This document shows, in pieces, positions 4,327 through 39,021 of a stretch of DNA of 41,137 nt (the stretch's first letter is position 1; each line of letters begins with the position of its first letter). A program made the translations under genes and the position numbers. Origin of the DNA: a virus; UHGV virus genome UHGV-0139000, one strand, 5' to 3'. A model generated the notes under the pieces. That model did no database searches. It saw nothing but the letters and a program-made list of their open reading frames with translations, and was not told the DNA's origin.

Positions 4327-4988
4327 GCTCCTACATCAAAACCACTGATGAATTCGTTATCCATATCAAAACCAAAAAATTTTGAGCCTTCCGATGGGGT
4401 TTCCACCGAAGGTGTTTCAATGCCACCCGCCCATACCCCGGCGGCTTTTACTGTGAGATACCCCTGTTTAATTGCCGCAATTAACTCACGCGATACATCT
4501 GAAATATCAGTATCAGGAAAGACCCAGACCGATATCGTCATGTCCTGGTTATCGACTATCTGCATTCGCAGCCCGGATCCTGCTGTTGCCGCGTCAAGAA
4601 TTGCCGGAAGCGAATCATTCCGTCCGTCCCAGTTATTAATCGCAATCTTCGCTTTAAGAATGACACGATAAGTTTCATCGCTGAGATACATGTATCCTGA
4701 ATCAGGATCGTATGGTCCCTGCCATACCCCCTGATCATATCCAAGCCCGTCGGTATCCCAGCTGAAATAGACACCTGAGATAGGCTGGCTGACAACACGG
4801 CTACGTCCGATCCACAATCCAAGGATGTCAAGTTGCACACCAACCGCAGAGTCAATATCAAATGCACTAATCAGCCCTCTGGTGGCAGCCGCAACATCAA
4901 TAAGTGGCCGGGTCATCAGATCAACATGCGCAAGAAATTTAGGTTTGGTGGCGTGGTAGTTCGTGATTAGTTCGGTGTATTTGCTCAT
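4308..4988 (-). CDS. baseplate/tail protein (P2 gpI / Mu gp48-like position)
   Basis: 226 aa between the baseplate J-like gene and the tail fibre; assignment by synteny. Confidence 0.5.
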
Positions 4989-6184
4989 GACTCCACCGTT
5001 ATAACGATATTTTTCGGGGTACAGGACGCAGATTCGTTGTATCTGATATCAATGTTTGATGACGACAAAGCCCCCGGGGATTTCCCAATCGTCAGTTCCT
5101 GAATATCGTAATAGCGTGCATTCCCGCCACTCACCACGCCAAGATTCGCCGGTGAGTAAATGCGACTTAAAAGGACCGAATCACCAATCATCAGACTATT
5201 GATATAGTCGGAAATAGCCTGCTGGATCTGCTGCCCTATCTGTGAGGTATAACCCGTAAAAACTTTTAATTTAATCAGGGCATAAACAGGCACATCACTG
5301 GAACGCGAGAATTTGATTACATGGGGATTGCCGTATTTATCCGGAACCGTAACGGATGTTGTACCGTGAGTGGCTGTCCCCTGGCCTTTATTCCCTCTGA
5401 TAGCCTGAGCAATATCCGTTACATCACCGCCATCCACAATTACAGCAACAGAGTGTGGCGGTAACCCGTTACCGTCCTCCGAACCAGTATCGTTTTCATA
5501 GAGTTTGTGGCGGGTTACACCGGTAACATTAGAAACAGCACCATCCAGTGCTTCAAATGGGGTTATTGATGGCAACGCAACACTTTGCGACTGGCGGATA
5601 CGTAACTCAGCGTCAGTTTCTGCCGGAGTGCCCACAGTGGCTGCAGCAGGATTGGTTACCGAAACCCAGCCACGGGTTGGCGTATTAATTTCAGTGATAG
5701 TTCCAGCCAGCGCCGCCACTGCACCACTGACGGAACATGTTGCGGTCACCATCACTGTACCATCCACGCCTACCACCACTGAAGCAGGCAAACGCCATAT
5801 CACATTATTACTGTCTTTCACGCTGCCATTAATGATGGTTGTTCCGGCAGTTCCTGTAAGAAGCAAATCAACCGTAGAGTTCGTCGCGCCTTTACGTGAA
5901 ATACCATTTATTTTCACGTTACAGGTCAGTGCAGCCCCATAGCCGGTTGCCGGTGAAAAACAGTTGTAGACAGTTATCGCCATATTATTGGCATCATGAA
6001 TCGCCAGCGCCATCAGAGCCACCATCTGGCCGTCTTTGCTATCCGGTTCGAGGTAGGCATCACTGCCATAAATCTGCTGAAAATAGCTAATCAGGGTGCT
6101 GAGTATCGTCTGATAATCAGGCGCACTGATCCCCTCCGCGGTTACCTTTGCAGATAAACCGAGAGAATCAAGGTTCAGAGCCAT
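4985..6184 (-). CDS. baseplate J-like protein
   Basis: 399 aa; position and size fit the P2 gpJ / Mu gp47 family; follows the gpW-like and gpV-like genes. Confidence 0.6.
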   Translation of the reverse strand: MALNLDSLGLSAKVTAEGISAPDYQTILSTLISYFQQIYGSDAYLEPDSKDGQMVALMALAIHDANNMAITVYNCFSPATGYGAALTCNVKINGISRKGATNSTVDLLLTGTAGTTIINGSVKDSNNVIWRLPASVVVGVDGTVMVTATCSVSGAVAALAGTITEINTPTRGWVSVTNPAAATVGTPAETDAELRIRQSQSVALPSITPFEALDGAVSNVTGVTRHKLYENDTGSEDGNGLPPHSVAVIVDGGDVTDIAQAIRGNKGQGTATHGTTSVTVPDKYGNPHVIKFSRSSDVPVYALIKLKVFTGYTSQIGQQIQQAISDYINSLMIGDSVLLSRIYSPANLGVVSGGNARYYDIQELTIGKSPGALSSSNIDIRYNESASCTPKNIVITVES

Positions 6185-6537: not shown

Positions 6538-7289
6538 CAGTTTACTCCGTCGGTATTGCTTCCACCGCGCTGAACACCACCATGAGTGTGCGTATCATCG
6601 ATTAGCTTGCCGTTAGCCTTCACGCTACCCAAAAACTCAACAGCACCAGTGATTTTTGAAGCCACACCAGAAACCACAGACCCCACCATGCCCCCCATCC
6701 AGGTTAACAGGCCATGAATGGTTACTTTCTCAGAAAAATCAGCCAGAGGGGCAACCACATCAAGGCCCCCCGGAGCGACAATTTTAATTTTCCTGGTATC
6801 AGGATTAAGCTCAAAATAGGTGCTGCCGTCATCACTACGCAACTGTGTGGCACTGGTATTAATACCGCTAATCTTCCTTGCCTGCGACTGGGGACCGACA
6901 ATACAAAACGCATCCGATAAATCATGCATTCTGTCATCGACCGGCTCCTGTATCCCGCCACTCTGCCACCAGAAATCAATACAACGATCGGCAAAAATCA
7001 CCAAACATTCATCACCGGCTTTAACTGGAAAAGTCAACGTACAGCCTCCGCCGCGCGGAAATACCACTGGCACATCCACCAGCAGGGGTAATGTCGTCGA
7101 CTGGTTGATTCCATTTGAGTCCGGCTCATAGCCTTTAATCGCAGGTTGAACAACCACTGTTACCGTGTCCGGATCAAATGACTGGACGATGCCGGGCATA
7201 GAAACACGCAGCGCCGACATGACAGAGCCAGCAAGTCTTACATCGGCCTGTTCTTTGCTACCAAGTTGAGCGCTTAAAGAAACGGGCAT
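6537..7289 (-). CDS. baseplate spike / assembly protein V-like
   Basis: 250 aa; N-terminal region (MPGIVQSFDPDTVTVVVQP...LPLLVDVPVVFPRGGG) resembles the gpV OB-fold spike family. Confidence 0.6.
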   Translation of the reverse strand: MPVSLSAQLGSKEQADVRLAGSVMSALRVSMPGIVQSFDPDTVTVVVQPAIKGYEPDSNGINQSTTLPLLVDVPVVFPRGGGCTLTFPVKAGDECLVIFADRCIDFWWQSGGIQEPVDDRMHDLSDAFCIVGPQSQARKISGINTSATQLRSDDGSTYFELNPDTRKIKIVAPGGLDVVAPLADFSEKVTIHGLLTWMGGMVGSVVSGVASKITGAVEFLGSVKANGKLIDDTHTHGGVQRGGSNTDGVN

Positions 7290-7306
7290 TCATATGTCTC
7301 CAGAAA

Positions 7307-7332
7307 GTAAAAAACCCGCCGGGTGGCGGGTT
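7307..7332 (-). terminator. rho-independent terminator downstream of the 79-aa membrane-protein gene
   Basis: Hairpin aacccgcc-gggt-ggcgggtt (7313..7332) followed on the minus strand by a run of six T (plus-strand A run 7309..7314). Confidence 0.6.
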
Positions 7333-7348
7333 CATTATTGAAGTTTCA

Positions 7349-7588
7349 TTACTGCTTGTTTGCTTCTAACGCTTCAGCTATTCGGCGAAGATACTCATTG
7401 TTTTTAAATGAAACCATGATGCACTCAAAGAATATTCGGCAAAATACAGCACATAACAAAAGCACTAAAGCGCCAGCAGCCTTCCCATTAACAAACGTTA
7501 TAATGGCGGCAACAACCAGAAGTAACATTGTGATGCCATACAGAACGTTGATGATTTTTGGAGTTATTAATTTATCAAATCCGAACAT
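7349..7588 (-). CDS. small two-helix membrane protein (79 aa), moron
   Basis: Two hydrophobic helices (ITMLLLVVAAIITFV, ALVLLLCAVFCRIFF); AT-rich; own terminator; inserted between baseplate genes. Confidence 0.55.
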   Translation of the reverse strand: MFGFDKLITPKIINVLYGITMLLLVVAAIITFVNGKAAGALVLLLCAVFCRIFFECIMVSFKNNEYLRRIAEALEANKQ

Positions 7589-7727
7589 GCGACAAATTCC
7601 TTATCGTGAAAGTAGAAGTATCACATTATAATTACGGGTGATTAATCAACAATCTTTTTGCATGGAAAGGAACCGATGATTTTCGGCGCATCCATGCTGT
7701 TCTGCAGAAGCTGGACGCAAATGTAAT

Positions 7728-8063
7728 TCACTTCACCTTCCGGCAATCATACGTCCAGAACTCCCGAGGCTCGTCCATATTTTTGCGGATAACTTCAACG
7801 TTGAGGATCGCTTTTTTGTTTCGTTTGATGTAGTCCATACCTAACCAACGTCCAGTATTAGGATCAGGTAACATCCATTGCATCATGACATTATCGAAAT
7901 CGTCTTTTTGTTTCAAAAAGGTCATTTTTTGTGTTTCTGGCTTTTGACCATTGATGTGCATGAGGCCATCATTACCAGCATCAAAGCGGAATGGTCCGCA
8001 CTGCGTTGCCGCCGAAACTGTTAACGGCAGGGCCAAGAATAAACAAAAAAATACTTTTTTCAC
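7728..8063 (-). CDS. secreted/periplasmic small protein (111 aa) with signal peptide, moron
   Basis: N-terminal MKKVFFCLFLALPLTVSA signal-like sequence, two Cys in the mature part; AT-rich; stop overlaps the start of the upstream tail gene. Confidence 0.55.
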   Translation of the reverse strand: MKKVFFCLFLALPLTVSAATQCGPFRFDAGNDGLMHINGQKPETQKMTFLKQKDDFDNVMMQWMLPDPNTGRWLGMDYIKRNKKAILNVEVIRKNMDEPREFWTYDCRKVK

Positions 8064-9094
8064 TCTACATCTCCGACTTTGTCCAAAGTGCCTTTTGCCA
8101 ATAGTTCTTTGCCACCTTTAGCCAGGCAAAGCAGGTCCATATACCACGCCTGCCCTCGGGTGTCGCCAGTATAATCAATGCTGCCCACAATGTAATCACC
8201 GTCAGTATTAATGCTGGCAGGCTGTGACATGCCTGGCAGACCGTTAACGTAGAGATTACCGTCGCTTTCAGACTCATCCAGTCGTGCTGGCGATTTCGCT
8301 ACCTGGTCATTACTCAAAGAGGCACGGTATACAGATGCCTGATCCAGACGAATAAGCCCACCGAGCTTAATATTTGGATTAATCAGGCATCTGACATTTA
8401 CGCCAGCTCCCATCGTCTGCTGTGGCATACCGATAAGCCCGGTGTTAGCATTCAACACCGTAGCAACACCAATATATTTATCTTCAGGAACAATATTTAC
8501 CAGATTATTTTCATACCACCAGTTAGCCTTACACTGCCCTGCGATATGATTCATCAACCTTGATGTGTTTTGATAAACAACGCGCCCCCGGGGAAATACC
8601 GTTTCAGGCATGTCAGGAACTGCGCCGGATTCGATGCCATATGGTTCGAATGATTTCATACCCAGACTGAAAAGATCTCTGTACTTCCAGCCAGCTGCCA
8701 CTGTGGTTTTCACACTTGCGTTCAGGTGGCCTTCCCAGCTGTCAATACACTGCAACATGATCCAACTGTCTGTGGCATTATCTTTACCAGTGACAGTAAA
8801 ACGGATATCTCCATTGAATATCATACCAACGTTTTCATCAGGATAATTACCTGCTGCATCCGGTTGCCCCTTGTATCCGGCAATAACCTGTATACGCGAA
8901 AACTCCTTCTGCATAATCCGGTTCTGAGTGGTAGGAGACAGGTTATAAACCTTAAAATTTCCAACGAATCCATTAAATATGGTCGCAGGCATTTTCTGAA
9001 TATTGAAAGTGACTTTAAGCTCAGAAAATTTTATCCCGTCGCCCTTATCATCAACAAGTAATAATTCAAAGTGACGCATCCAGTTTTTCGACAT
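8060..9094 (-). CDS. tail/baseplate hub protein (putative)
   Basis: 344 aa between tape measure and spike genes; synteny only. Confidence 0.45.
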   Translation of the reverse strand: MSKNWMRHFELLLVDDKGDGIKFSELKVTFNIQKMPATIFNGFVGNFKVYNLSPTTQNRIMQKEFSRIQVIAGYKGQPDAAGNYPDENVGMIFNGDIRFTVTGKDNATDSWIMLQCIDSWEGHLNASVKTTVAAGWKYRDLFSLGMKSFEPYGIESGAVPDMPETVFPRGRVVYQNTSRLMNHIAGQCKANWWYENNLVNIVPEDKYIGVATVLNANTGLIGMPQQTMGAGVNVRCLINPNIKLGGLIRLDQASVYRASLSNDQVAKSPARLDESESDGNLYVNGLPGMSQPASINTDGDYIVGSIDYTGDTRGQAWYMDLLCLAKGGKELLAKGTLDKVGDVE

Positions 9095-9096
9095 TG

Positions 9097-9399
9097 TTAC
9101 TCCGTGAAAACATAGAGGTGTGAGAGCGTTCCAAGATCGAATTGCGTCGGATTCTCCTGCCCTGCCACGTCGCAGAGCACCACCAGAGAAAAACCCAGAT
9201 CCATATATCGATACTGTGCCAGCAGGTCAGCCCCAGTAATCATCGGTATACCTGATATAATGGCGGAGCCATTGCTGTCAGCAAGATCCAGAACCCAGTA
9301 CTCGCCTCGCCAGATGACAGACAGGTGATAAACCGAACCGTTAATTGTGGTGGCAAAAGTCTGATTGTCAGCAACCAGTGGGATTTCTACGGCTTGCAT
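9097..9399 (-). CDS. tail protein, hypothetical (100 aa)
   Basis: Tightly packed within the tail operon. Confidence 0.4.
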   Translation of the reverse strand: MQAVEIPLVADNQTFATTINGSVYHLSVIWRGEYWVLDLADSNGSAIISGIPMITGADLLAQYRYMDLGFSLVVLCDVAGQENPTQFDLGTLSHLYVFTE

Positions 9400-9402
9400 G
9401 AA

Positions 9403-10053
9403 TCACCTTCCCAGAAATAAATTGCTCAAATACCCATCAACAGTGGAGATACCTTCTTGCGCCATCTGTGGCAGCGATTTCAGAATGGAATTATTCGGCA
9501 GCACCGTTGTTTTGGTGCCTGTATTCTGCACAGCAGACGTTCCGACTCCCTCGGTCATATTGTTTTTCGGGGCAACCCTGACTGACTGCGTGGAGGTAAT
9601 AATTACTTCCCTGAGGGTAAATGTCGCCAGAAGCACATTTTCACTACTCTTATCGGTCGTAACCTCCAGCGTTTTTATCAACATATTGTTGTAAATACGC
9701 TTGCCGGTTGTCACATCGAAAGGAATACGATTCCGCTGCAGGTTAAGCAGTTCCTGATACAGTTCTTTCGGGCTCAGCCCCAGTAAACTGGTAGCCGTCA
9801 GGTTACTGGCAAAATCAAGCAGCGATCCGCCTCCGGAAAAACCGGTTTCCATCACAACCTCAGAAGGGCGCCTGAATGCGTGTTCTGATATATAACCAGC
9901 GCCCTCACCACTGGCACCAGCATTCGTGGGCTGTTCAACCGGATGTTCCGTAATTTCCAGGGCGTCAGTGTGCTTTTCGGTAATAACCACATCAGGAATA
10001 ATGATTCCTATTGAGCGGGTTCGCTGCTGCAGTAAAACAGATAAAAAGTCCAT
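9403..10053 (-). CDS. tail protein, hypothetical (216 aa), directly downstream of tape measure
   Basis: Start overlaps the tape-measure stop; synteny only. Confidence 0.4.
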   Translation of the reverse strand: MDFLSVLLQQRTRSIGIIIPDVVITEKHTDALEITEHPVEQPTNAGASGEGAGYISEHAFRRPSEVVMETGFSGGGSLLDFASNLTATSLLGLSPKELYQELLNLQRNRIPFDVTTGKRIYNNMLIKTLEVTTDKSSENVLLATFTLREVIITSTQSVRVAPKNNMTEGVGTSAVQNTGTKTTVLPNNSILKSLPQMAQEGISTVDGYLSNLFLGR

Positions 10054-12059
10054 TACGCAGGTCCTTTCAATTGCTGTACCGCCCTGGCATTTACAGCCCC
10101 CTGCTTGTCAGCGATCAGATTAGCCGCCTCCTGAGGGTTGTTAACTCCATGAACATTTATAACAGTCTGCTGGTTAAGGCTGCCAGCGGCGGCCTGATAC
10201 GCCAGCGGGCTGTTCCAGTTTGAATAACCTTCTTTGCGCGCCATCGACTGCATCAATGCTCCCATAGTCTGGGGATCTGTAAGATTCAATATTGCATTCG
10301 GTGATACTCCCATCCATTTCGCAACATCCTGTGCATACTTTTTCGGATCGTTGTTATCACCTGCCGGGGCCCAGGTACTGACAATATCCTGAATAGTCTG
10401 TAATGCTCGTCCGGTTGTTTTCCCGGTAAAGTAACGCATGAGCTGATTTTTCATCGCCTCCCAGCCCTCAAGAGCTGATTCGAAAAACCGGAACCCTTTA
10501 CCGCTCACCGGGCGAATGTTCCCGGGGTTATTGTTGCGATCAGCAAGAGTACCGCCGCCGGGGATGTCGGGCTGGACGTTGGAGCCATGCACTACACCGT
10601 TACTCTGTCCCTGCCGGATAACTTTACCGGGTCCCCCGTGCAACCAGTCCATCCACGCAGGCCATTCACGGACCTCACTGACATCCCTGCGTCCGATATC
10701 TGTTTTTATACCAATAGCAGCCAGCGTGTCGCCGATAATTCGCTTCGTATACCTCAGTGAAGATTTTGCGCTATCGGCAATATTTTCTCTGTCACTAACA
10801 ATATAGCCCGCGTAAAGCGCCCACAATTTAAGCCAGGGTGGGACCGGTAAACCTGATATTTTTCCGAAAGCCCCCAGAACCTTGGATACCCAGACACCCG
10901 CGATGAATGTACCGAGGATTTCCAGTGCATTTTGCCAGCCGCCAACACCATCTTTTAGTTCCAGAAGGTGATCACGAAGCCAGGTGATCGCATCCTTCGC
11001 TTTATCTATTGCCGGTTGCCATTTTTCCCAGTCGATAAGACTGTTACCGCCTTCTTTCCATGTTTTGTAGTCTTCCCACAAGAGACCGAGAGCCACGATC
11101 AGACCGGTAATCAGCCCTATAGGTGACATCCAGAAAGTAGAGTTAAGTATCCGCATGGCGACAACCAGACCGCCGATAACCTCTATCAGGGTTTTCGTTT
11201 CGGCATCCAGTTTCCCCCACCACTCGATGATATCGCCGACACCATCGACTATCCGAAATGCTACCCGCCCGACTATCTCACCCAGCCAGAGGATCCCCTT
11301 TATGACCTTTGTGATGGTGACTTCAATTTTGGGAAAATTTTCAATTATCTTTTTGCGCAGGTTATCAATCTGCCCCGCCAGTCCGTCCGCAAGATTCGAT
11401 CCGATTTTGTCCCGCGCCATCCCGGCCATTTCACCGAGCGATTTCAGCGAGGTCATAAACCGGTTTGACGATAAGGCAGCCTGATCGGCATTAAATCCGA
11501 TCGCTTTCACCATTTCTGAATACTGAGCGCTGAACTGCCCCACACCACGACGCATGGCCATCAGGGTATTTTCGTCAATGCCCAGCATCTGCGCATACTG
11601 GTTAGCCCGGTAATACGGCATACCGCTGAGCTTCTGGCCTACACCTGTAAAAATAGCGGCCATGTCACGCATGTTGCCGCTGGCATCACGGGTCTGTACG
11701 CCCAGGCGATTCAGAAAGCCTTCTGCTCCGGGATTGTTACGAATAAACCGGGAGAGGCTTTCCAGAGAAGATCGCGCAGCGTCCACACTGCCGCCAACCT
11801 GCGAAACCGCATAGCCAATAGACTGAATTCCCTGGACTGTCGCGCCGGTGCGCTGTGACGCCCAGTAAAGATTATCCAGGCCGGAGGCGATCTTAGCCGT
11901 GAAGGCCACCACGGACAGCGCAGCTCCTTCAACGGCCAGTCCCATTTTGATGACATTTGCAGTTGTACCGGCGAGGACAGAACCGAACTTTTTCGCTCCT
12001 GCATCATCCACACTGAAGCCAAGCGAGACGAGGAAATCTTTAATAGTTTCAGCGTTCAT
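10053..12059 (-). CDS. tail tape measure protein
   Basis: About 668 aa with Ala/Gly-rich helical segments and a hydrophobic central region; downstream of sheath, tube and chaperone genes. ATG at 12059 with upstream GGAGAGAGG preferred over the TTG at 12080. Confidence 0.75.
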   Translation of the reverse strand: MNAETIKDFLVSLGFSVDDAGAKKFGSVLAGTTANVIKMGLAVEGAALSVVAFTAKIASGLDNLYWASQRTGATVQGIQSIGYAVSQVGGSVDAARSSLESLSRFIRNNPGAEGFLNRLGVQTRDASGNMRDMAAIFTGVGQKLSGMPYYRANQYAQMLGIDENTLMAMRRGVGQFSAQYSEMVKAIGFNADQAALSSNRFMTSLKSLGEMAGMARDKIGSNLADGLAGQIDNLRKKIIENFPKIEVTITKVIKGILWLGEIVGRVAFRIVDGVGDIIEWWGKLDAETKTLIEVIGGLVVAMRILNSTFWMSPIGLITGLIVALGLLWEDYKTWKEGGNSLIDWEKWQPAIDKAKDAITWLRDHLLELKDGVGGWQNALEILGTFIAGVWVSKVLGAFGKISGLPVPPWLKLWALYAGYIVSDRENIADSAKSSLRYTKRIIGDTLAAIGIKTDIGRRDVSEVREWPAWMDWLHGGPGKVIRQGQSNGVVHGSNVQPDIPGGGTLADRNNNPGNIRPVSGKGFRFFESALEGWEAMKNQLMRYFTGKTTGRALQTIQDIVSTWAPAGDNNDPKKYAQDVAKWMGVSPNAILNLTDPQTMGALMQSMARKEGYSNWNSPLAYQAAAGSLNQQTVINVHGVNNPQEAANLIADKQGAVNARAVQQLKGPA

Positions 12060-31441: not shown

Positions 31442-32743
31442 ATGCCAGACGTTCATGCACAACTTTCTCCATCATCAGCGCATCGATGGATGCGCTGCCC
31501 AGGAAGTCTGGCGCTGGAGGCCACACAACCGGATAAAGAAACAACTTTTGCAATCGAGGGCACTGCAGCGCACGCGCTTGCTGAAAAAGTTCTACGAAAC
31601 AGGCAAAGCCACCCGGAACACTACGCCGGATGCAATGTTTCTATGTTTCTCGGCTCATACCCCCTTCGCGAAAATCCTGATGATACATCTGGCCCACAGG
31701 TGGATGATGAAATGGTCGAAGCCGTTGGCCGGTATGTTGATACGGTCTGGACTCTTGCACAGAATAATGAACTATTGGTTGAACAACGTGTTGATTTCTC
31801 ACATATAACGGGGGTGGAAGAATCTTTCGGAACTGCCGACGGCATAATCATCGCTGGTAACGAATTACAAATCCACGACCTGAAATATGGCAAAGGCGTC
31901 CGCATTGATGCAGAACAAAATGAGCAACTACAACTGTATGCTCTGGGTGCGCTCGAACAATTCAGCATGCTGTATGACTTTGAGACTGTAAGATTATTTA
32001 TTCACCAGCCAAGGCTCAACCACGTTTCAGAATGGTCGTTAACCGTGCAGGAACTTCAGTCTTTCGGTAAACGAGCACAGGAGGCCGCAACCAGTGCGAT
32101 CCTTGTTCTCAATATTGCTGAATGCGAAGGCATTGAGACACTACCGCTGGAAAACTTCATACCTGGAGAAAAACAGTGCCGCTTCTGTAAAGCAAAAGCT
32201 ATTTGCACTGCCCAGAAAATGCAGCATTTACAAACAGCGGCCAGCGACTTTGAAGATCTGACAAAGCCTGTCAGCGAAATAATCACCAATGCCAGCGCAC
32301 GTGTACCTCTGTTAACCATTGAGCAGCTTGCGGAGATCTATAGCCAGGCCGACTTTATTGAGTCCTGGCTAAAGGCAGTACGGGACCGGGTTCACAATGA
32401 ACTCAATGCCGGACATCCGGTACCGGGGTTTAAACTGGTAACAGGAAAACAAGGTAACCGGGCCTGGAGTGATGAAGAGGCAGCTCGCGCACTTCTGAAG
32501 GACCAGTTCAGGTACAAAACTGAAGAAGTATTCGACTTTAAACTTATTAGTCCCACAAAAGCCGAAAAACTTATCAAAAAGGCCAGTCCACGCCGTTGGT
32601 CAAAAGTCGAGGCACTGATAACACGAGCTGATGGTAAACCAACCGTCGTTCCCGAGTCAGACCCACGCCCCGCACTCAATATCAACCCTGTAAATGATTT
32701 CGACGACGTATCCGACGATACGCTAACCGCAGACCTCATCTGA
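31442..32743 (+). CDS. PD-(D/E)XK family nuclease (Cas4/RecB-like, DUF2800-type)
   Basis: N-terminal [14 protein letters not shown], central IHDLKYGKG motif and C-terminal Cys cluster ([10 protein letters not shown]); typical companion of phage PolA modules. Confidence 0.65.
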
Positions 32744-32758
32744 TTTAAGGAAATACCC

Positions 32759-33307
32759 ATGAAACTGAAGCTGAACAATGTTCGTCTGGCCTTCCCGTCT
32801 CTGTTTGAAGCTAAAACTGTAAACGGCGAAGGCGATCCGCGTTTCTCCGCAGTATTTTTAATGTCTCCCAAACACCCACAACTGGAAGAAATCCGTAAAG
32901 CTATGAAGCAGGTAGCGAAGGAAAAATGGGGAGAGAAGTGGGAGCCCATTTATAACCAGCTGGAGAAAAAACTCAATCTGTGCCTGCATGATGGTGATGA
33001 AAAAGCAGAGTATGAAGGCTTCCCCGGCAATTTCTTCCTGAATGCTGCTAACAAAGCGCGCCCAGCTGTTCTTGATCGCGATCGTTCGCCACTTATTCAG
33101 GCTGACGGACGTCCTTATGCAGGGTGCTATGTAAACGCCGTTATCGATATCTGGGCACAGGACAATAATTTCGGTAAACGCATTAATGCCTCACTCGGCG
33201 GAGTCCAGTTCCTGCGAGACGGCGATGCATTCGCTGGCGGCGGAGTGGCAAGCGCTGACGATTTCGACGATATCAGCGAAGGTGCTGATGCTGAAGCACT
33301 AATTTAA
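32759..33307 (+). CDS. ssDNA-binding-like protein (DUF2815-type) of the replication module
   Basis: 182 aa directly after the nuclease; assignment from recalled family and synteny. Confidence 0.5.
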   Translation: MKLKLNNVRLAFPSLFEAKTVNGEGDPRFSAVFLMSPKHPQLEEIRKAMKQVAKEKWGEKWEPIYNQLEKKLNLCLHDGDEKAEYEGFPGNFFLNAANKARPAVLDRDRSPLIQADGRPYAGCYVNAVIDIWAQDNNFGKRINASLGGVQFLRDGDAFAGGGVASADDFDDISEGADAEALI

Positions 33308-33359
33308 CCCTACTTCATAGACGCCCGGTTAAACACCGGGCTACTGATTAGGCGTATAA

Positions 33360-33989
33360 TCACTCAGGAATCTTAATCTTTCTCAATTCTTTATTTAGTT
33401 CACAGATCTTTTTCTTAGACGGGAAAGTATCATACATCCAAAAACCAACAGTCTCTAAAACTATTATCATAACCATATACACAAGATAATTTAAAAGGCC
33501 TTCATTTTGCCCTATGGAAATAATGCAGATAATAGAAAAAAGGGTAAACAGCACAAAACACAGAAAGGAAAACAGACGACTAATAATAAATAAAAAACCT
33601 GAAAAATCAACATTAATAAAAAACACTCCGTTATCTTTCTCTATATAATTCTGAAGCTTAATCAACTGATTTATATACTGTCTTTTTTCTAATCTATTGC
33701 AAATGTAAATAACATCTCTTCGGTTATAAGAGGATTGCAATTTCAGCGCATCACGAATAATTTTATCATTTATTCTTTTTTCTATGGCTTTCTTATCCTC
33801 CTTATCCAGATAACGTTCATACTTAATTAAATATAAAATTAACTTCTTGACATATTTAGGCTCTTTATACTTATAATTAAAAATAATCTTTCTTATCCAG
33901 ACTCCCATAACAATCAAACATGAAAAAATATATCCAGCTATTTTCTCCAGATGCTCTGTATGGTCAATCAAGTATTGGATCATATGCAT
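33360..33989 (-). CDS. membrane protein (209 aa), antisense AT-rich insert in the replication operon
   Basis: One N-terminal and two C-terminal hydrophobic helices with a Lys/Glu-rich central region; strongly AT-rich codons; opposite strand to all neighbours; stem-loop at 33325..33343 on its 3' side. Confidence 0.6.
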   Translation of the reverse strand: MHMIQYLIDHTEHLEKIAGYIFSCLIVMGVWIRKIIFNYKYKEPKYVKKLILYLIKYERYLDKEDKKAIEKRINDKIIRDALKLQSSYNRRDVIYICNRLEKRQYINQLIKLQNYIEKDNGVFFINVDFSGFLFIISRLFSFLCFVLFTLFSIICIISIGQNEGLLNYLVYMVMIIVLETVGFWMYDTFPSKKKICELNKELRKIKIPE

Positions 33990-34035
33990 AATTAATCTTT
34001 TAATCAGTTAATAGAATAAAAACCAAGGTAAACAC

Positions 34036-36099
34036 ATGTCCAATATACTATGGGGCGACCTGGAAACCTATTGCGAAATCCCTATTACGAACGGTACCCA
34101 TGCGTATGCCGAAGGCGTTGAAGTGATGCTTTTCGCATGGGCTATCAACGACGGGCCAGTAAACGTGTGGGATATCACTGCCGGTGGTGGTATTCCACAC
34201 GGCTTATACGAAGCAATCGCAGACCCTGAAACCCTGCTTTATTTTCATAACTCTCACTTCGACCGCACCGTCCTGCGTTATGCAATGCCGCGCCTGGCAC
34301 CGCCAGTCGAACGTTGGCGCGACACAATGGTGCAGGCGCTGGCGCACGGTCTCCCGGGGTCTCTGGGGGAACTCTGCGAAATACTCGGCGTCCCGCAAGA
34401 CAAAGCGAAGGACAAAGAAGGTAAAGCGCTGATCCAGCTGTTCTGTAAGCCCCGCCCGAAAAACAGCAAACTGCGCCGTGCCACCAGCAAAACCCACCCG
34501 GAAGAATGGCGGCGCTTTGTTGCTTACGCCGGACTGGATATCGAGGCAATGCGCGAAGTCTATAAACGTCTGCCGAAGTGGAATTATCAGGGGACAGAGC
34601 TGGCGCTCTGGCATCGTGATCAGCAGATCAACGACCGGGGCGTCTGCATGGACATGCAACTCGCGCGCGCTGCGATCGAAGCGGTAGACCAGGAGCAAAA
34701 GCGCCTGGCAAAGCGTACACAGGAAATGACTGATGGCGAAGTGCAGGCAGCCACACAACGAGACGCGTTGATTAAGCACATTGTTGAATCCTACGGTGTG
34801 GAGCTACCAGACATGCAACGCAGTACTCTGGAACGTCGTATTGCCGACCCCGATTTACCATCTGCCGTGAAAGAACTGCTGGCTATCCGCCTGCAGGCCA
34901 GTACTACCAGCACCAGTAAATACAAGGCACTGATGAAAGGCGTAAGCCACGACGGGCGCTTACGCGGTACGCTACAGTTCTGCGGGGCGTCACGTACCGG
35001 TCGTTGGGCCGGACGGCTATTCCAGCCCCAGAACCTTCCCCGCCCTTCACTAAAACAGGAACAAATAGACGAAGGCATCGAAGCACTGAAAGCCGGATGT
35101 GCAGACCTGCTGTTTGACAATATCATGGAACTAACCAGTTCAGCGTTACGTGGCTGCATTATCGCGCCAACAGGCAAAAAGCTGGTGGTAAGTGACTTGT
35201 CGAACATTGAAGGCCGTATGCTGGCATGGCTGGCGGGAGAAGAATGGAAACTGAATGCATTCAGAGAGTACGACGCCGGAACGGGTCCGGACTTATATAA
35301 ACTGGCGTATGCAAAAGCTTTCGATATTGCACCAGATGATGTTGATAAACACATGCGTCAGATCGGTAAAGTCATGGAACTCGGTCTGGGTTATGGTGGT
35401 GGTGTGTCGGCCTTCATCACTTTTGCACTGGTTTACGGTCTCGATCTCGACGAGCTGGCGAACGCCGCACTACCAAACATTCCCCGCGATGTTATCCGCG
35501 AGGCGAAAAGCTGGTACGACGAATCTGTTAAACGCAAGTCAACCTACGGGCTTTCTGAACGGGTATTTATCGCCTGCGACTCACTTAAACGTCTCTGGCG
35601 CCGGGCGCATCCCGCGACCTGTGATTTCTGGTACGAACTGGAGCGCACCGTCCGCACTGCAATCGCCACACCGCAAAAAACATTGTATTGCGGTTATCTT
35701 AAAATCCGCCGCGATGGCGCGTGGCTGCGCATACAGCTACCATCCGGACGCGCTGTATGCTACCCGTCTCCGGTTATCGAAAAAGGGAATATCACCTACA
35801 TGGGGGTTAACTCTTATTCGCGTAAATGGCAACGACTCAAAACCTACGGCGGAAAGCTGGTGGAGAACATCACCCAGGCGGCCGCCCGCGACATTCTGGC
35901 CGGAAACATGCCGCTTATCGAAGATGCCGGTTACAGCATTGTGCTGACGGTACACGACGAGGTGATCACCGAAGCACCTGACACAGAAGATTTCAACGAT
36001 AAAGCGCTTTCCGCACTTCTCTCCACTAACCCCGAATGGGCGCCCGATATCCCACTGAACGCTGGCGGTTTTGAGGCGTACCACTACCGTAAGGATTAA
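34036..36099 (+). CDS. family A DNA polymerase (phage type)
   Basis: Motif A DLSNIEGR, motif [17 protein letters not shown], motif C VHDEVITE; 687 aa. Confidence 0.85.
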
Positions 36100-36104
36100 C
36101 TCCT

Positions 36105-36320
36105 ATGTCATTTAAATACCGGGACAATCCACTTTATTACAGGGCTGCAAGGGAAGCTTTGCGACTTGAACAATCCGGCGAATATGACCGGGCAGCGGAG
36201 GTCTGGGCAAAAGCCAACCGCGAATCACATCACGAACTGAATCAGGAATGGAGTGAACGCAGATCTGATTTTTGCCTGATGCAGAACATGCGTGAAAAGC
36301 GTAAGGCGGTCGAAGAATGA
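36105..36320 (+). CDS. hypothetical small protein (71 aa)
   Basis: Translationally coupled within the replication operon. Confidence 0.45.
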   Translation: MSFKYRDNPLYYRAAREALRLEQSGEYDRAAEVWAKANRESHHELNQEWSERRSDFCLMQNMREKRKAVEE

Positions 36321-36616
36321 TCGTTTACGTTGCCGGGCCGATGAGCGGTTACGAGCAATTTAACCGCCCGGCCTTTCATTCCGCAGCAAAGAGGCTAACG
36401 GACAAGGGATATGTTGTGCTTAACCCCGCAACTTTACCCAATGGTTTGACACAGGCTCAGTACATGGACATCTGCCTCGCAATGCTTCGCTGTGCCGATA
36501 CGATTTATATGCTCAAAGAGTGGGAGTACTCTGCTGGCGCACGTGCAGAAAACGCGTTGGCAGAGAAACTGGAATTGAATGTGCTTTTTGAAGAGTGGGA
36601 TTCAGATGGCCTATGA
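36317..36616 (+). CDS. DUF4406-type protein (nucleoside 2-deoxyribosyltransferase-like fold)
   Basis: N-terminus MIVYVAGPMSG and overall size match the family as I recall it. Confidence 0.5.
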   Translation: MIVYVAGPMSGYEQFNRPAFHSAAKRLTDKGYVVLNPATLPNGLTQAQYMDICLAMLRCADTIYMLKEWEYSAGARAENALAEKLELNVLFEEWDSDGL

Positions 36617-36875
36617 ACGTGAAAGCCTTATCGAAAAGCACCTCGTCGCTGAAGTGAAAAAAGCTGGCGGAGTGGCCTTTAAGTTTGTATCTCCCGGTCA
36701 CCGCTCGGTACCGGATCGCATTGTCCTGCTACCAGGCGGTCGTATCGTTTTCGTTGAATGTAAATCTCCCGGCAAGCCACCACGGCCTGACCAGTTGCGC
36801 GAACATGAACGTCTGCGAAAACTGGGCTTTACCGTGGTGGTGCTGGATAGCAAAAATTTAGAGGGGATATTGTGA
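36606..36875 (+). CDS. VRR-NUC domain nuclease
   Basis: About 90 aa with ...PDRIVLLPGGRIVFVECKSPG... (D...E-x-K core); usual position beside the helicase. Confidence 0.65.
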   Translation: MAYERESLIEKHLVAEVKKAGGVAFKFVSPGHRSVPDRIVLLPGGRIVFVECKSPGKPPRPDQLREHERLRKLGFTVVVLDSKNLEGIL

Positions 36876-36880
36876 GACAA

Positions 36881-37606
36881 TCATTCTGAGCGATTTTTCT
36901 TGAGCTTAGAAGCTTTTAAAAAACATACTTTTAGTTGTTGTGTTTCTTTTATGCTTACAGGAATTAATTTCCCCTCAATTCCTTCGACACTCATAAATTC
37001 AGAGCTATTTTTTTTACAGTTCCCCAAGACAAATTTTCCGTTATAGCTTTCGATAATATAAGCATCATATTTTTTAGAATAAAAAAGAGGCTCATCTGAT
37101 AAGTATGCCCATGCCCACCCAAGGACTGAAGGAAGCATTGCTATGGATATAAAAAGCATAACCCCATGAGTTTTGTTTTTTATTCTAAATTCATTCCTAA
37201 TAAAAACAGATACTGCCCTGACACTGATAGGGCTAATAAATCCCAACAGTATTGCTTGGGTAGCCACATCCCTTATGGATTTTTCATAAAGGTATGAGCT
37301 ACCGCCATATAAATACATTGTCCAGTATGAAAGCAAAGAGGCCAAAATGAAGAAAAATAAATACACCCACCATGGAATATTCTTCTCTTCAGTATCAATA
37401 TGCAGCAAAGCGACTAAGGTGCACAAAAGTCCTAATGCAATAACAGAAAATTTAACTATTTCCTCAATCCCAATAGAAATAAAACTTACAGGGAATCCAT
37501 AAAATGAGCTGTACCCTTTGTAAAAAGAAAAAGCCATAAAATAAAGGGCGGCCAAGAGAACCGTTGTAATTGATAAATCTTTTACATTCATGATGTTCAA
37601 GAGCAC
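36881..37606 (-). CDS. polytopic membrane protein (241 aa), antisense AT-rich insert between VRR-NUC and helicase
   Basis: Four to five predicted hydrophobic helices in the first ~160 aa then a Lys-rich soluble tail; strongly AT-rich; opposite strand to both neighbours. Confidence 0.6.
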   Translation of the reverse strand: MLLNIMNVKDLSITTVLLAALYFMAFSFYKGYSSFYGFPVSFISIGIEEIVKFSVIALGLLCTLVALLHIDTEEKNIPWWVYLFFFILASLLSYWTMYLYGGSSYLYEKSIRDVATQAILLGFISPISVRAVSVFIRNEFRIKNKTHGVMLFISIAMLPSVLGWAWAYLSDEPLFYSKKYDAYIIESYNGKFVLGNCKKNSSEFMSVEGIEGKLIPVSIKETQQLKVCFLKASKLKKNRSE

Positions 37607-37629
37607 CTTTCTAATCAGGGATTTTCTTC

Positions 37630-39021
37630 ATGATAACTTTTAAACCACGTCCCTACCAAGATCTCATCATCAATCATCAAATCGAGACCCTGCGCGGCAA
37701 CATCTGGGCAGGGATGGGGATGGGTAAAACCGTAGCGACACTCACCACGCTGGAAGATCTTTTCATGGCTGGAGCAGAAACACGCCCCGCGCTGGTCCTC
37801 GCGCCGCTACGCGTTGCAGCAAGCACTTGGCCTGATGAAGCTGTTAAATGGGGGCATCTGCGTAATATTGAGGTACAGCCGATCATCGGTAACGCCAAAG
37901 CGCGCTCTACAGCGCTGGCGAACAGCAACGCGAGCGTGTTCACAATCAACTACGATAACCTTGTCTGGCTGGTTGAAGAATTGGGAGAACGATGGTCGTT
38001 CGGTACTGTCATTCCAGATGAAAGCACCCGGCTAAAATCCTTCCGGCTGCGAGGTGGTGGTAAGCGCGCGGCGGCGCTGGGCAAAGTGGCGCACAAGTAT
38101 GTCCGGCGCTGGATAAATCTCACCGGTACGCCAGCACCGAACGGCCTGGTAGATTTGTGGGGACAATCGTGGTTTGTGGACCAGGGGCAACGTCTCGGGC
38201 GCACTTACGGCGCGTTTACCTCACGCTGGTTCAAATCGATACAGTTTCCGGGGCAGAGCTGGACCAAACTGGAGCCTTTTGCTCACTCACAGGGTGAAAT
38301 ACAGCGAGCGTTAGCCGATGTGACCCTCTCGCTGGATGCGGCCGACTGGTTCGATATCAAAGACCCCATCCATAACGTAATCCGCGTGGATATGCCGCCG
38401 AAGGCCCGTCAGCAGTATCGTGAAATGGAAAAGGAAATGTTCCTCGAGCTGAATGGCGAAGGCATCGAAGCACCGAACGCCGCGGCAAAGACACTGAAGT
38501 GTCTGCAAATCGCCAGCGGCGCAGTATACACAGATGACACCGGAAGTTGGTCAGAACTGCATGACACCAAACTACAGGCGCTGGACAGCATACTGACCGA
38601 AGCAGCTGGCGCACCTGTGCTGGTTGCTTATCACTGGAAACACGATCTTGAACGCTTGCTTAAAGCATTCCCTCGCGGTCGTCACCTCGACCAGGCTCCA
38701 CAGACACTGCGCGACTGGAATTCCGGAAAGATTCCTGTTCTCTTTGCACACCCAGCCAGCGCGGGCCACGGCCTGAACATGCAGGACGGCGGAAATATAC
38801 TGGTATTTTTCTCACACTGGTGGGACCTGGAGCAATATCAGCAAATTATTGAACGTATCGGCCCAACCAGACAGATACAGGCCGGACACAATCGTCCGGT
38901 ATTTATTCACCACATTATTGCTGCCGACACTATGGACGAAATGGTGATGGAGCGGCGCAACTCAAAACGAACAGTGCAGGACATCCTGCTCGATGCCATG
39001 AAAAAGAGAGGTATAGCATGA
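37630..39021 (+). CDS. SNF2/DEAD-like superfamily 2 helicase
   Basis: Walker A AGMGMGKTV and DExx-like IPDESTRL; 463 aa; last gene of the replication operon. Confidence 0.7.
   Translation: MITFKPRPYQDLIINHQIETLRGNIWAGMGMGKTVATLTTLEDLFMAGAETRPALVLAPLRVAASTWPDEAVKWGHLRNIEVQPIIGNAKARSTALANSNASVFTINYDNLVWLVEELGERWSFGTVIPDESTRLKSFRLRGGGKRAAALGKVAHKYVRRWINLTGTPAPNGLVDLWGQSWFVDQGQRLGRTYGAFTSRWFKSIQFPGQSWTKLEPFAHSQGEIQRALADVTLSLDAADWFDIKDPIHNVIRVDMPPKARQQYREMEKEMFLELNGEGIEAPNAAAKTLKCLQIASGAVYTDDTGSWSELHDTKLQALDSILTEAAGAPVLVAYHWKHDLERLLKAFPRGRHLDQAPQTLRDWNSGKIPVLFAHPASAGHGLNMQDGGNILVFFSHWWDLEQYQQIIERIGPTRQIQAGHNRPVFIHHIIAADTMDEMVMERRNSKRTVQDILLDAMKKRGIA

Follow-up and report, generated by a model that had tools for sequence, protein, structure and literature searches.

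The stretch of DNA analysed here (the window) is the 41,137-nucleotide virus genome UHGV-0139000, and the subject of this analysis is a minus-strand gene at positions 33360 to 33989, which lies antisense to its neighbours inside the replication module. From its sequence matches, the window is an Escherichia coli temperate myovirus prophage: the region is 98 to 99.9% identical to E. coli chromosomal prophages, for example that of strain O55:H7 CB9615 (where the prophage abuts yfhL), and matches were likewise obtained to three phages of E. coli, namely, vB_EcoM-606R2, -611R5, and -689R2. The gene encodes a protein of 209 amino acids (aa) predicted to reside in the inner membrane. The comparisons below assign it to an exchangeable cassette and to a rare protein family, and a role in phage exclusion is tentatively proposed. 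The replication module has the order phrog_6784, DUF2800 nuclease, DUF2815 single-stranded DNA (ssDNA)-binding protein, the antisense 209-aa gene, PolA, an ANR-like 71-aa gene, DUF4406, VRR-NUC, a second antisense AT-rich gene, and an SNF2 helicase. The features at the locus are as follows.

33308 to 34035, no strand: exchangeable cassette of 728 bp, delimited by junction alignment and by the other cargo found in relatives
33360 to 33989 (stop included), minus strand: coding sequence of the 209-aa predicted inner membrane protein, ATG start, from the list of open reading frames, hydropathy, alignment, and model
33990 to 34035, no strand: divergent, cassette-specific intergenic region of 46 bp, from position counting, promoter scan, and junction alignment
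33323 to 33341, no strand: stem-loop gcccggt/taaac/accgggc with a GC-rich 7-bp stem and a 5-nucleotide (nt) loop, from position counting, folding, and junction alignment
32759 to 33307, plus strand: left flank, gene for the DUF2815 Enc34-type ssDNA-binding protein, conserved backbone, 98 to 99% identical in relatives with other cargo
34036 to 36099, plus strand: right flank, gene for a family A DNA polymerase, conserved backbone

The antisense gene

The only long open reading frame (ORF) within 33308 to 34035 is that of the 209-aa protein. An earlier note, made from the letters of the window, had placed such a gene on the opposite strand between a DUF2815-like gene and the polymerase with 46 bp to the polymerase start, and both the position and the spacing to the ATG at 34036 agreed with our measurements. 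The strongly AT-rich codon usage claimed there was likewise found, as the G+C content of the gene is 28.6% (31.4% at third codon positions) versus 50.4% for the 3-kb flanks, a difference of 22 points. In sliding windows the G+C fraction was 0.27 to 0.29 inside the gene (minimum, 0.27) and approximately 0.48 to 0.57 on either side, and each homologue described below is 6 to 25 points under its own flanks. Of the 20 listed rows, 19 give the ORF as encoding a hypothetical protein, and the remaining one has no annotation for it. The only match in PHROGs was phrog_10579, of unknown function, the profile of which begins at M28; since residues 1 to 27 are conserved among relatives, the start at M1 is favored over M28.

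The 209-aa ORF is a real gene. The opposite view, that it is a spurious reading frame in an AT-rich spacer yielding no protein, could draw on the lack of a strong Shine-Dalgarno sequence, promoter, or annotated function. It is nevertheless highly improbable, as an open frame of 630 nt at 29% GC is unlikely to arise by chance, the ORF was unbroken in all six copies that were translated, and the cassette is full length in 67 of 67 genomes. Furthermore, relatives at 23 to 44% identity retain the length, architecture, and motif of the protein, and the mean AlphaFold2 confidence (predicted local distance difference test [pLDDT]) was 82.5 with a 20-sequence family alignment versus 53.6 for the single-sequence model. 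The ratio of nonsynonymous to synonymous polymorphism among close copies was approximately 0.3, a value resting on just 14 substitutions, which are too few for a conclusion.

Exchange of cargo between DUF2815 and the polymerase

The slot was surveyed with a 2.8-kb query spanning it against 5,426 complete E. coli genomes. The DUF2815-polymerase backbone was found in 159 of these, of which 67 were covered throughout; these are the same 67 E. coli genomes that carry the cassette at full length and at least 95% identity. Conservation of the gene in all relatives had been named in the earlier note as an observation that would speak against its reading; instead, the other 92 backbone genomes lack the 209-aa gene and carry other cargo, their flanks being approximately 96 to 99% identical at the DNA level while the middle differs. 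The note had also proposed asking whether the slot holds different cargo in related phages, and it does, the occupants comprising a 199-aa homologue, unrelated antisense genes, Nmad5, BRO-N, and Ant. This alternative cargo was seen in an evenly spaced sample of the ranked matches and in five fetched examples (L003 to L007). The arrangements were a plus-strand Nmad5 gene with an antisense 89-aa gene for a protein with two transmembrane (TM) segments, Nmad5 with an antisense 229-aa gene for a soluble protein, the antisense 199-aa gene alone, BRO-N alone with no antisense gene, and a 58-aa gene plus Ant together with the 199-aa gene. One 199-aa subtype was present in 13 complete E. coli genomes.

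The junctions of the exchanged segment are sharp. On the left, similarity ends at the DUF2815 stop codon (L003, L004, and L006) or just after the stem-loop (L005 and L007). On the right, four of the five relatives (L003, L004, L006, and L007) become similar again from the polymerase ATG onward; the annotated polymerase of L005 is a truncated pseudogene with its start elsewhere, and the right-junction comparison therefore covers the other four. Each of the four cassettes compared at this junction carries its own polymerase ribosome-binding site. In the window this site is AAGG, 7 nt ahead of the ATG and inside the 46-bp intergenic region of the cassette. Because relatives hold other cargo and because the stop codon of DUF2815 and the ATG of the polymerase mark the exact breaks in homology, the 209-aa gene is concluded to be dispensable cargo outside replication. 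The sequence comparisons thus show the 728-bp interval to be a horizontally exchanged cassette with one real gene, which the replication module can do without. Two features that mark a moron (a Hendrix-type extra gene of a prophage), namely, presence or absence between adjacent conserved genes and a nucleotide composition unlike that of the neighbours (28.6% versus 50.4% GC), were both observed, and from these comparisons the interpretation of the gene as cargo of this kind is well supported.

Several further observations were made at the slot and its surroundings. The forward half is filled in many relatives by a gene of the Nmad5 family of putative nucleotide-modification genes (L003, 1560 to 2198; L006, 1560 to 2201), which in L006 shares 7 nt with the 3' end of the gene for the antisense 229-aa protein. 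In enterotoxigenic E. coli (ETEC) H10407 (L021, 5237 to 7311), the prophage polymerase is annotated as frameshifted, with 11 extra bases in the matched span, and the neighbouring 209-aa ORF is intact; as one anecdote, this fits retention at the level of the host. Genes of the homing endonuclease type (NUMOD4 domain; HNH endonuclease) are inserted around DUF2800 and DUF2815 in some relatives (e.g., L023, 2132 to 2650) and are not found in the window.

Predicted topology and conserved positions

The earlier note had claimed three membrane helices, and here the two lines of prediction agree. Kyte-Doolittle windows gave hydrophobic segments at residues 15 to 33, 128 to 159, and 165 to 187 (approximate boundaries), and the AlphaFold2 model built with the family alignment has long helices at 11 to 37, 132 to 160, and 165 to 188. 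The predicted layout of the 209-aa protein is therefore the following.

Residues 1 to 14: acidic N-terminal tail
Residues ~15 to 33: TM1
Residues ~34 to 127: basic cytoplasmic alpha/beta domain
Residues ~128 to 159 and 165 to 187: TM2-TM3 hairpin
Following residues: basic C-terminal tail

Charge counts for all 20 aligned members gave the same pattern throughout. A short net-acidic N-terminal tail (6 to 17 aa, except for one member with a 57-aa N-terminal extension) is followed by TM1, a strongly basic domain of approximately 94 aa (14 to 23 Lys plus Arg), TM2, a loop of 1 to 9 residues, TM3, and a basic tail of 22 to 33 aa. From this pattern and the positive-inside rule, the N terminus is predicted to be outside and the C terminus inside, so that the cytoplasm would contain almost the whole protein. 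The product is thus predicted to be an inner membrane protein of approximately 210 aa with three TM segments in an N-out/C-in arrangement, the first being a signal-anchor helix and the periplasmic loop amounting to only 1 to 9 residues.

Conservation peaks in the cytoplasmic domain and the tail. N199 and L202 are invariant in the family, while R90, I125, F151, P190, I195, and K204 occur in at least 90% of members. The most conserved motif, FPxxxxIxxxNxELxK, lies in the C-terminal tail and is formed by P190, I195, N199, L202, and K204. In the model, a beta-hairpin at residues 116 to 125 with conserved G121, F123, and I125 directly precedes TM2. Two residues do not vary within the 209-aa clade, namely, E179, which lies in TM3, and R138, with which TM2 starts.

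Protein family and genomic contexts

A word-indexed search of 5.8 billion proteins returned one full-length cluster at 90%, comprising 456 sequences and named 'MULTISPECIES hypothetical protein [Enterobacteriaceae]'. An exhaustive HMMER scan of 1.84 billion representatives yielded just 10 proteins at an E value of ≤1e-3: six of full length (209 to 218 aa; 26 to 43% identity), three partial (49 to 158 aa), and one of 261 aa. The 199-aa occupants of the slot share the architecture of the 209-aa protein at 17 to 22% identity, and hhalign related the two with a probability of 97.6% (E value, 3e-12); on this alignment evidence, they are deduced to be remote homologues. Profile searching added 199-aa members in Enterobacter, Klebsiella aerogenes, and Pluralibacter. 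The label DUF2207, given by NCBI to one 199-aa homologue, was rejected because the best DUF2207_C score was 15.7 bits versus a Pfam gathering cut-off of 33.

Among all 25 loci examined in IMG/VR, 11 of the 209-aa type and 10 of the 199-aa types lie directly upstream of the polymerase on the opposite strand, and the remaining 4 hold a type of 38% identity between the P2 genes gpS and gpV. In a collection of 50,697 phage genomes, the 209-aa gene was found only in three E. coli phages that share the replication module of this prophage, and the 199-aa allele was not found. A collection of plasmids held no homologue of the member associated with an integrative and conjugative element (ICE), a profile search of the genome contigs with four close sequences returned two loci only, and neither the names of the phages nor the WP accession gave any match in the literature search. 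Against solved structures, sequence comparison listed only a chance match to an ArcB TM segment (E value, 0.86).

Apart from one copy in a plain chromosomal context, family members occupy accessory positions of unrelated elements, and they are solitary in every context. The 38%-identical homologue lies between gpS and gpV of P2-like prophages, where its copies are codirectional with their neighbours; this is the orf30 site, one of three characteristic, horizontally acquired moron regions of P2-like phages (PMC6823313, PMC3091744). A second homologue lies in a lambdoid prophage just upstream of the antiterminator gene Q; a defence gene for a dGTPase (PADLOC, 5.5e-144) is two genes away, and methylase and HNH genes are nearby. 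In Serratia sp. Ag1, a 44%-identical homologue lies in an integrase-bounded island (L019; coordinates of interest, 4805 to 5404 and 6805 to 11592), with a gene for a low-GC DUF6338 membrane protein (2.6e-33) on one side and, on the other, a Septu-like PtuA/PtuB pair (PtuA, 8e-31) followed by a type I restriction-modification S subunit. Further homologues were found at a prophage end after tail fibre assembly and lectin genes, antisense between RecT and a PAPS-reductase gene, next to an integrase near a gene with a Tlde1 domain, and, at 43% identity, in a TraG_N conjugative region. The orientation of the homologues relative to their neighbours is not constant. Taken together, the homology searches and contexts show the 209-aa gene to belong to a rare Enterobacterales family of solitary cargo genes of mobile elements.

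Comparison with known exclusion proteins

The closest architectural parallel was found with SieA of phage P22. SieA is a 164-aa protein of the inner membrane with three predicted TM segments, the best-conserved motif of which, FxRYPxEAxxFNK, is cytoplasmic and directly follows the last TM segment (PMC10883804). The gene occurs in 22 of 66 P22-like phages; the SieA types are functionally equivalent although only approximately 25% identical (PMC10883804). According to our predictions, both SieA and the 209-aa family have a short N-terminal tail, a TM segment, a basic cytoplasmic linker (helical in SieA), a TM hairpin joined by a short periplasmic loop, and lastly a cytoplasmic tail that is likewise short. 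The layout of the SieA family (TM segment, cytoplasmic linker, TM hairpin) is thus reproduced in hydropathy, charge, and AlphaFold2 helices, and the charge pattern and the position of the conserved motif after TM3 also agree. The genes are alike in being single, AT-rich, and antisense, in occurring in some relatives only, and in having highly divergent alleles at a fixed slot; P22 sieA lies antisense directly after the ejection gene 16 and is 13 GC points under its flanks. The two differ in that the cytoplasmic domain of the family is twice as long as that of SieA and includes the beta-hairpin, and the tail motifs of the two are spaced differently, by 2 residues, from P to N. They also differ in location, as SieA occurs only between genes 16 and 9 of P22-like prophages, whereas the present gene lies between DUF2815 and the polymerase, and its family is found in the replication module of a myovirus, in the P2 orf30 slot, in lambdoid prophages and islands, and in an ICE.

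Homology to the SieA family (types A to C; PF26849) was tried and rejected. The Pfam scan is uninformative on this point since P22 SieA and the SieA of E. coli HS1 were themselves unmatched, though precomputed annotation lists PF26849 for SieA homologues, and hhalign was used instead. Comparison with P22 SieA, a nine-sequence type A profile, and the type B protein of HS1 gave probabilities of only 0.2 to 0.3%, compared to 99.5% (E value, 1.4e-22) for the positive control of type A versus type B. The best local alignment did pair the tail motifs of SieA and the family, but with an E value of 0.22 over 17 columns it is not significant.

SieB and RexB were also considered, as both exclude other phages and are, like the 209-aa protein, membrane proteins encoded in a prophage. 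None of the 20 members matched SieB (PF14163) in Pfam at an E value of ≤1, while the lambda SieB control was recognized (1e-29), and hhalign gave 0.1%. The same was found for RexB (PF15968), with no Pfam match in the 20 members, a recognized control, and 0.1% by hhalign; in addition, the gene is solitary in all contexts, whereas RexB needs RexA. SieB differs from the family in having its TM segments at the N terminus and its soluble domain at the C terminus, and RexB differs in having four TM segments. The lambda sieB gene is likewise antisense inside an early operon, being on the plus strand between minus-strand ral and N, and it thus provides a precedent for an exclusion gene embedded in this manner.

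Two further comparisons are looser. The 38%-identical homologue occupies the same gpS-gpV position as orf30 of P2, which is itself a 261-bp ORF of unknown function (PMC6823313) and is likened here by position alone; the slot in the window belongs to a different phage type and module. SNIPE is a defence nuclease anchored in the inner membrane that works at the injection site and has a cytoplasmic functional part acting on phage genome entry (PMC13190303). It is likened by this description, and it differs in having a nuclease domain, while no catalytic domain is recognizable in the 209-aa family.

Transcription of the locus

The stem-loop was placed in the earlier note at 33325 to 33343; it exists, lies on the 3' side of the gene, and is stable, folding better than 200 of 200 shuffles on either strand (z scores of −3.4 and −3.5), while its true position is 2 nt further left, at 33323 to 33341. 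It is not a canonical terminator for either strand in the window, as no T/U run follows it on either strand and a terminator scan was also empty. Relatives L005 and L007 have the same stem-loop followed by TGTTTTT, resembling a plus-strand terminator after DUF2815, and in the window cassette sequence stands where this T run would be. The stem-loop is therefore deduced to be a remnant of the backbone, its T run having been displaced by the cassette, and its assignment as the terminator of the 209-aa gene was rejected because it lacks a U tract and belongs to the backbone.

The sole promoter-like match for the minus-strand gene is TGGACA-18-TATTCT at 34042 to 34013, which reaches into the first polymerase codons and is at chance level; no strong Shine-Dalgarno sequence was seen for the gene. 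The scan found neither a plus-strand promoter-like site nor a terminator between DUF2815 and the polymerase. The simplest reading of this sequence is that the polymerase is transcribed by read-through across the antisense gene. The claim that the gene splits the replication operon is not supported in the transcriptional sense. No Rfam family was found in 32000 to 38500.

Proposed function and alternatives

It is tentatively proposed that the 209-aa protein is a single-gene exclusion or defence protein made by the repressed prophage and acting at the inner membrane, most likely in the manner of SieA; by analogy with known systems we regard this as possible, if a little short of probable. The protein would be made from the repressed prophage and would shield the lysogen from other phages at the inner membrane. 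In a SieA-like mode, the formation or use of the DNA delivery conduit would be blocked, and divergent alleles in the same slot would differ in the range of phages targeted. In the lytic phase, the antisense gene would be expressed less because transcription of the replication operon would run through it. Abortive infection (Abi) or superinfection exclusion (Sie) is a plausible function. Between these two, a SieA-like block of genome entry is preferred because of the architectural parallel with SieA; taken separately, the entry block lies on the doubtful side of possible, and an Abi-type membrane effector is rather unlikely. A broader proposal can be made for the family as a whole, and here too our expectation is low: it may represent a portable single-gene inner membrane barrier to phage genome entry, a diverged or convergent counterpart of SieA outside the P22 lineage that moves between prophages of the myovirus, P2-like, and lambdoid kinds as well as defence islands and conjugative elements, with the 209-aa and 199-aa alleles setting which invaders are excluded.

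Several observations weigh against these proposals. PADLOC-DB v2 (5,027 models) had no match at an E value of ≤1 for the 209-aa protein or at ≤0.001 for the 199-aa allele. Neither the protein nor the 20 family members had any significant match, or any above a curated cut-off, in Pfam and NCBIfam. What was listed was weak, namely, Rex (18.5 bits; cut-off, 198) and RbsU (16.6 bits; cut-off, 375) in NCBIfam and sub-threshold DUF5325 and DUF2207_C in Pfam. Fold searches with the model returned generic helical bundles only, and the rejection of SieA homology described above belongs here as well. Promoter scans in four contexts found promoter-like sites to be no more common than in shuffled sequence, and the AT-rich DNA of the cassette could be silenced by H-NS. 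One homologue lies in the plain chromosomal context noted above, and guilt by association is weak for a single gene. Lastly, a predicted protein that is mostly cytoplasmic suits a sensor-effector design of the Abi type equally well.

In such an Abi design, the cytoplasmic domain of approximately 95 aa would sense infection, and the three helices would oligomerize and depolarize or permeabilize the membrane so that the infected lysogen dies ahead of the completion of the invader's cycle, following the logic of RexB or of lambda and P22 SieB. This would agree with a protein whose bulk and most conserved parts are cytoplasmic and whose periplasmic exposure is minimal, with the conserved E179 within TM3 and basic R138 at the start of TM2 in the 209-aa clade, with the lambda sieB-like placement antisense in an early operon, and with the defence island neighbours of homologues. 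It is disfavored by the lack of homology to SieB or RexB (Pfam, with the controls recognized, and hhalign, 0.1%) and of any recognizable sensor or enzymatic domain, and nothing in silico tells it from an entry block; sequence data cannot separate the two. An accessory role unrelated to phage exclusion, such as conjugative entry exclusion, modulation of a host inner membrane transporter or protease, or immunity to a membrane-targeting toxin, is less likely still. It is suggested by the 43%-identical homologue in the TraG_N conjugative region, by one member with a weak TraS listing (E value, 0.1), and by the homologues near the Tlde1-domain gene and in the ordinary chromosomal context. However, no such neighbour is found in more than one context, the TraS listing falls short of significance, and most contexts are prophage sites known for exclusion or defence cargo.

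A nonessential helper of the lytic cycle, tethering the replication machinery to the membrane or timing lysis and interchangeable with analogous slot genes, is an improbable alternative. The position inside the replication module would fit it, as would the finding in IMG/VR that loci of this type of prophage have divergent homologues directly upstream of the polymerase (11 plus 10 of 25 loci) and a weak listing of a holin family (phrog_2508; E value, 0.37). However, the orientation opposes the operon, the gene is absent from over half of the relatives with approximately 96 to 99% identical flanking DNA, and the BRO-N type has no antisense gene at all. Homologues in tail gene, Q-proximal, island, and ICE contexts are unrelated to replication, and the gene is intact in ETEC H10407 despite the frameshifted polymerase. 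The exclusion protein with a SieA-like mode is our preferred, if tentative, assignment.

Other variable junctions downstream

Two further junctions of the module are variable. The second antisense AT-rich ORF (36881 to 37606, minus strand; 34% GC) lies between VRR-NUC and the SNF2 helicase and encodes 241 aa (236 aa as annotated in CB9615) with 5 to 6 hydrophobic segments; it had no match in Pfam, PADLOC, PHROGs, or NCBIfam. Just 22 of the 5,426 complete E. coli genomes have it, and its distribution is independent of that of the 209-aa gene, since MLI108K3 pairs it with the cassette of Nmad5 and the 229-aa gene in the first slot. In relatives other genes occupy its position; ETEC H10407, for example, has a cytosine methyltransferase gene and a different antisense gene there.

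The junction after the polymerase (36100 to 36620 in the window, 6265 to 7026 in L001, and 22878 to 23944 in L002) is a third variable slot, which in the window holds the ANR-like 71-aa gene and DUF4406. In vB_EcoM-606R2 and SI-NP020, it holds a gene for a TIR-domain protein (PADLOC candidate PDC-S35, 1.2e-108; Pfam CAP12/Pycsar TIR, 2.9e-31), and in CB9615 it holds an unknown 169-aa gene and a YfbU-family gene. The DUF4406 ORF (36317 to 36616) and the VRR-NUC ORF (36579 to 36875) overlap by 38 nt (36579 to 36616) in different frames as listed; since annotated relatives have shorter VRR-NUC products, the VRR-NUC start may lie downstream.

Implications

As a kind of object, an orphan membrane protein moron located in a prophage hotspot is familiar, and if the 209-aa gene has no phage phenotype, it remains an ordinary example of one. 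New here are the existence of the family, the repeated occurrence of its members at sites of moron and defence genes in several types of element, the series of alleles in a single slot, and a SieA-like design with no detectable homology. If the gene does function in phage exclusion, a new single-gene family of approximately 210 aa would join the short list of inner membrane entry and exclusion proteins, and a natural allelic series would be available for the mapping of specificity. The DUF2815-polymerase junction and the two further junctions downstream would then be recognized as hotspots of cargo in this common type of E. coli prophage, beside those of P2/P4 and lambdoid phages.

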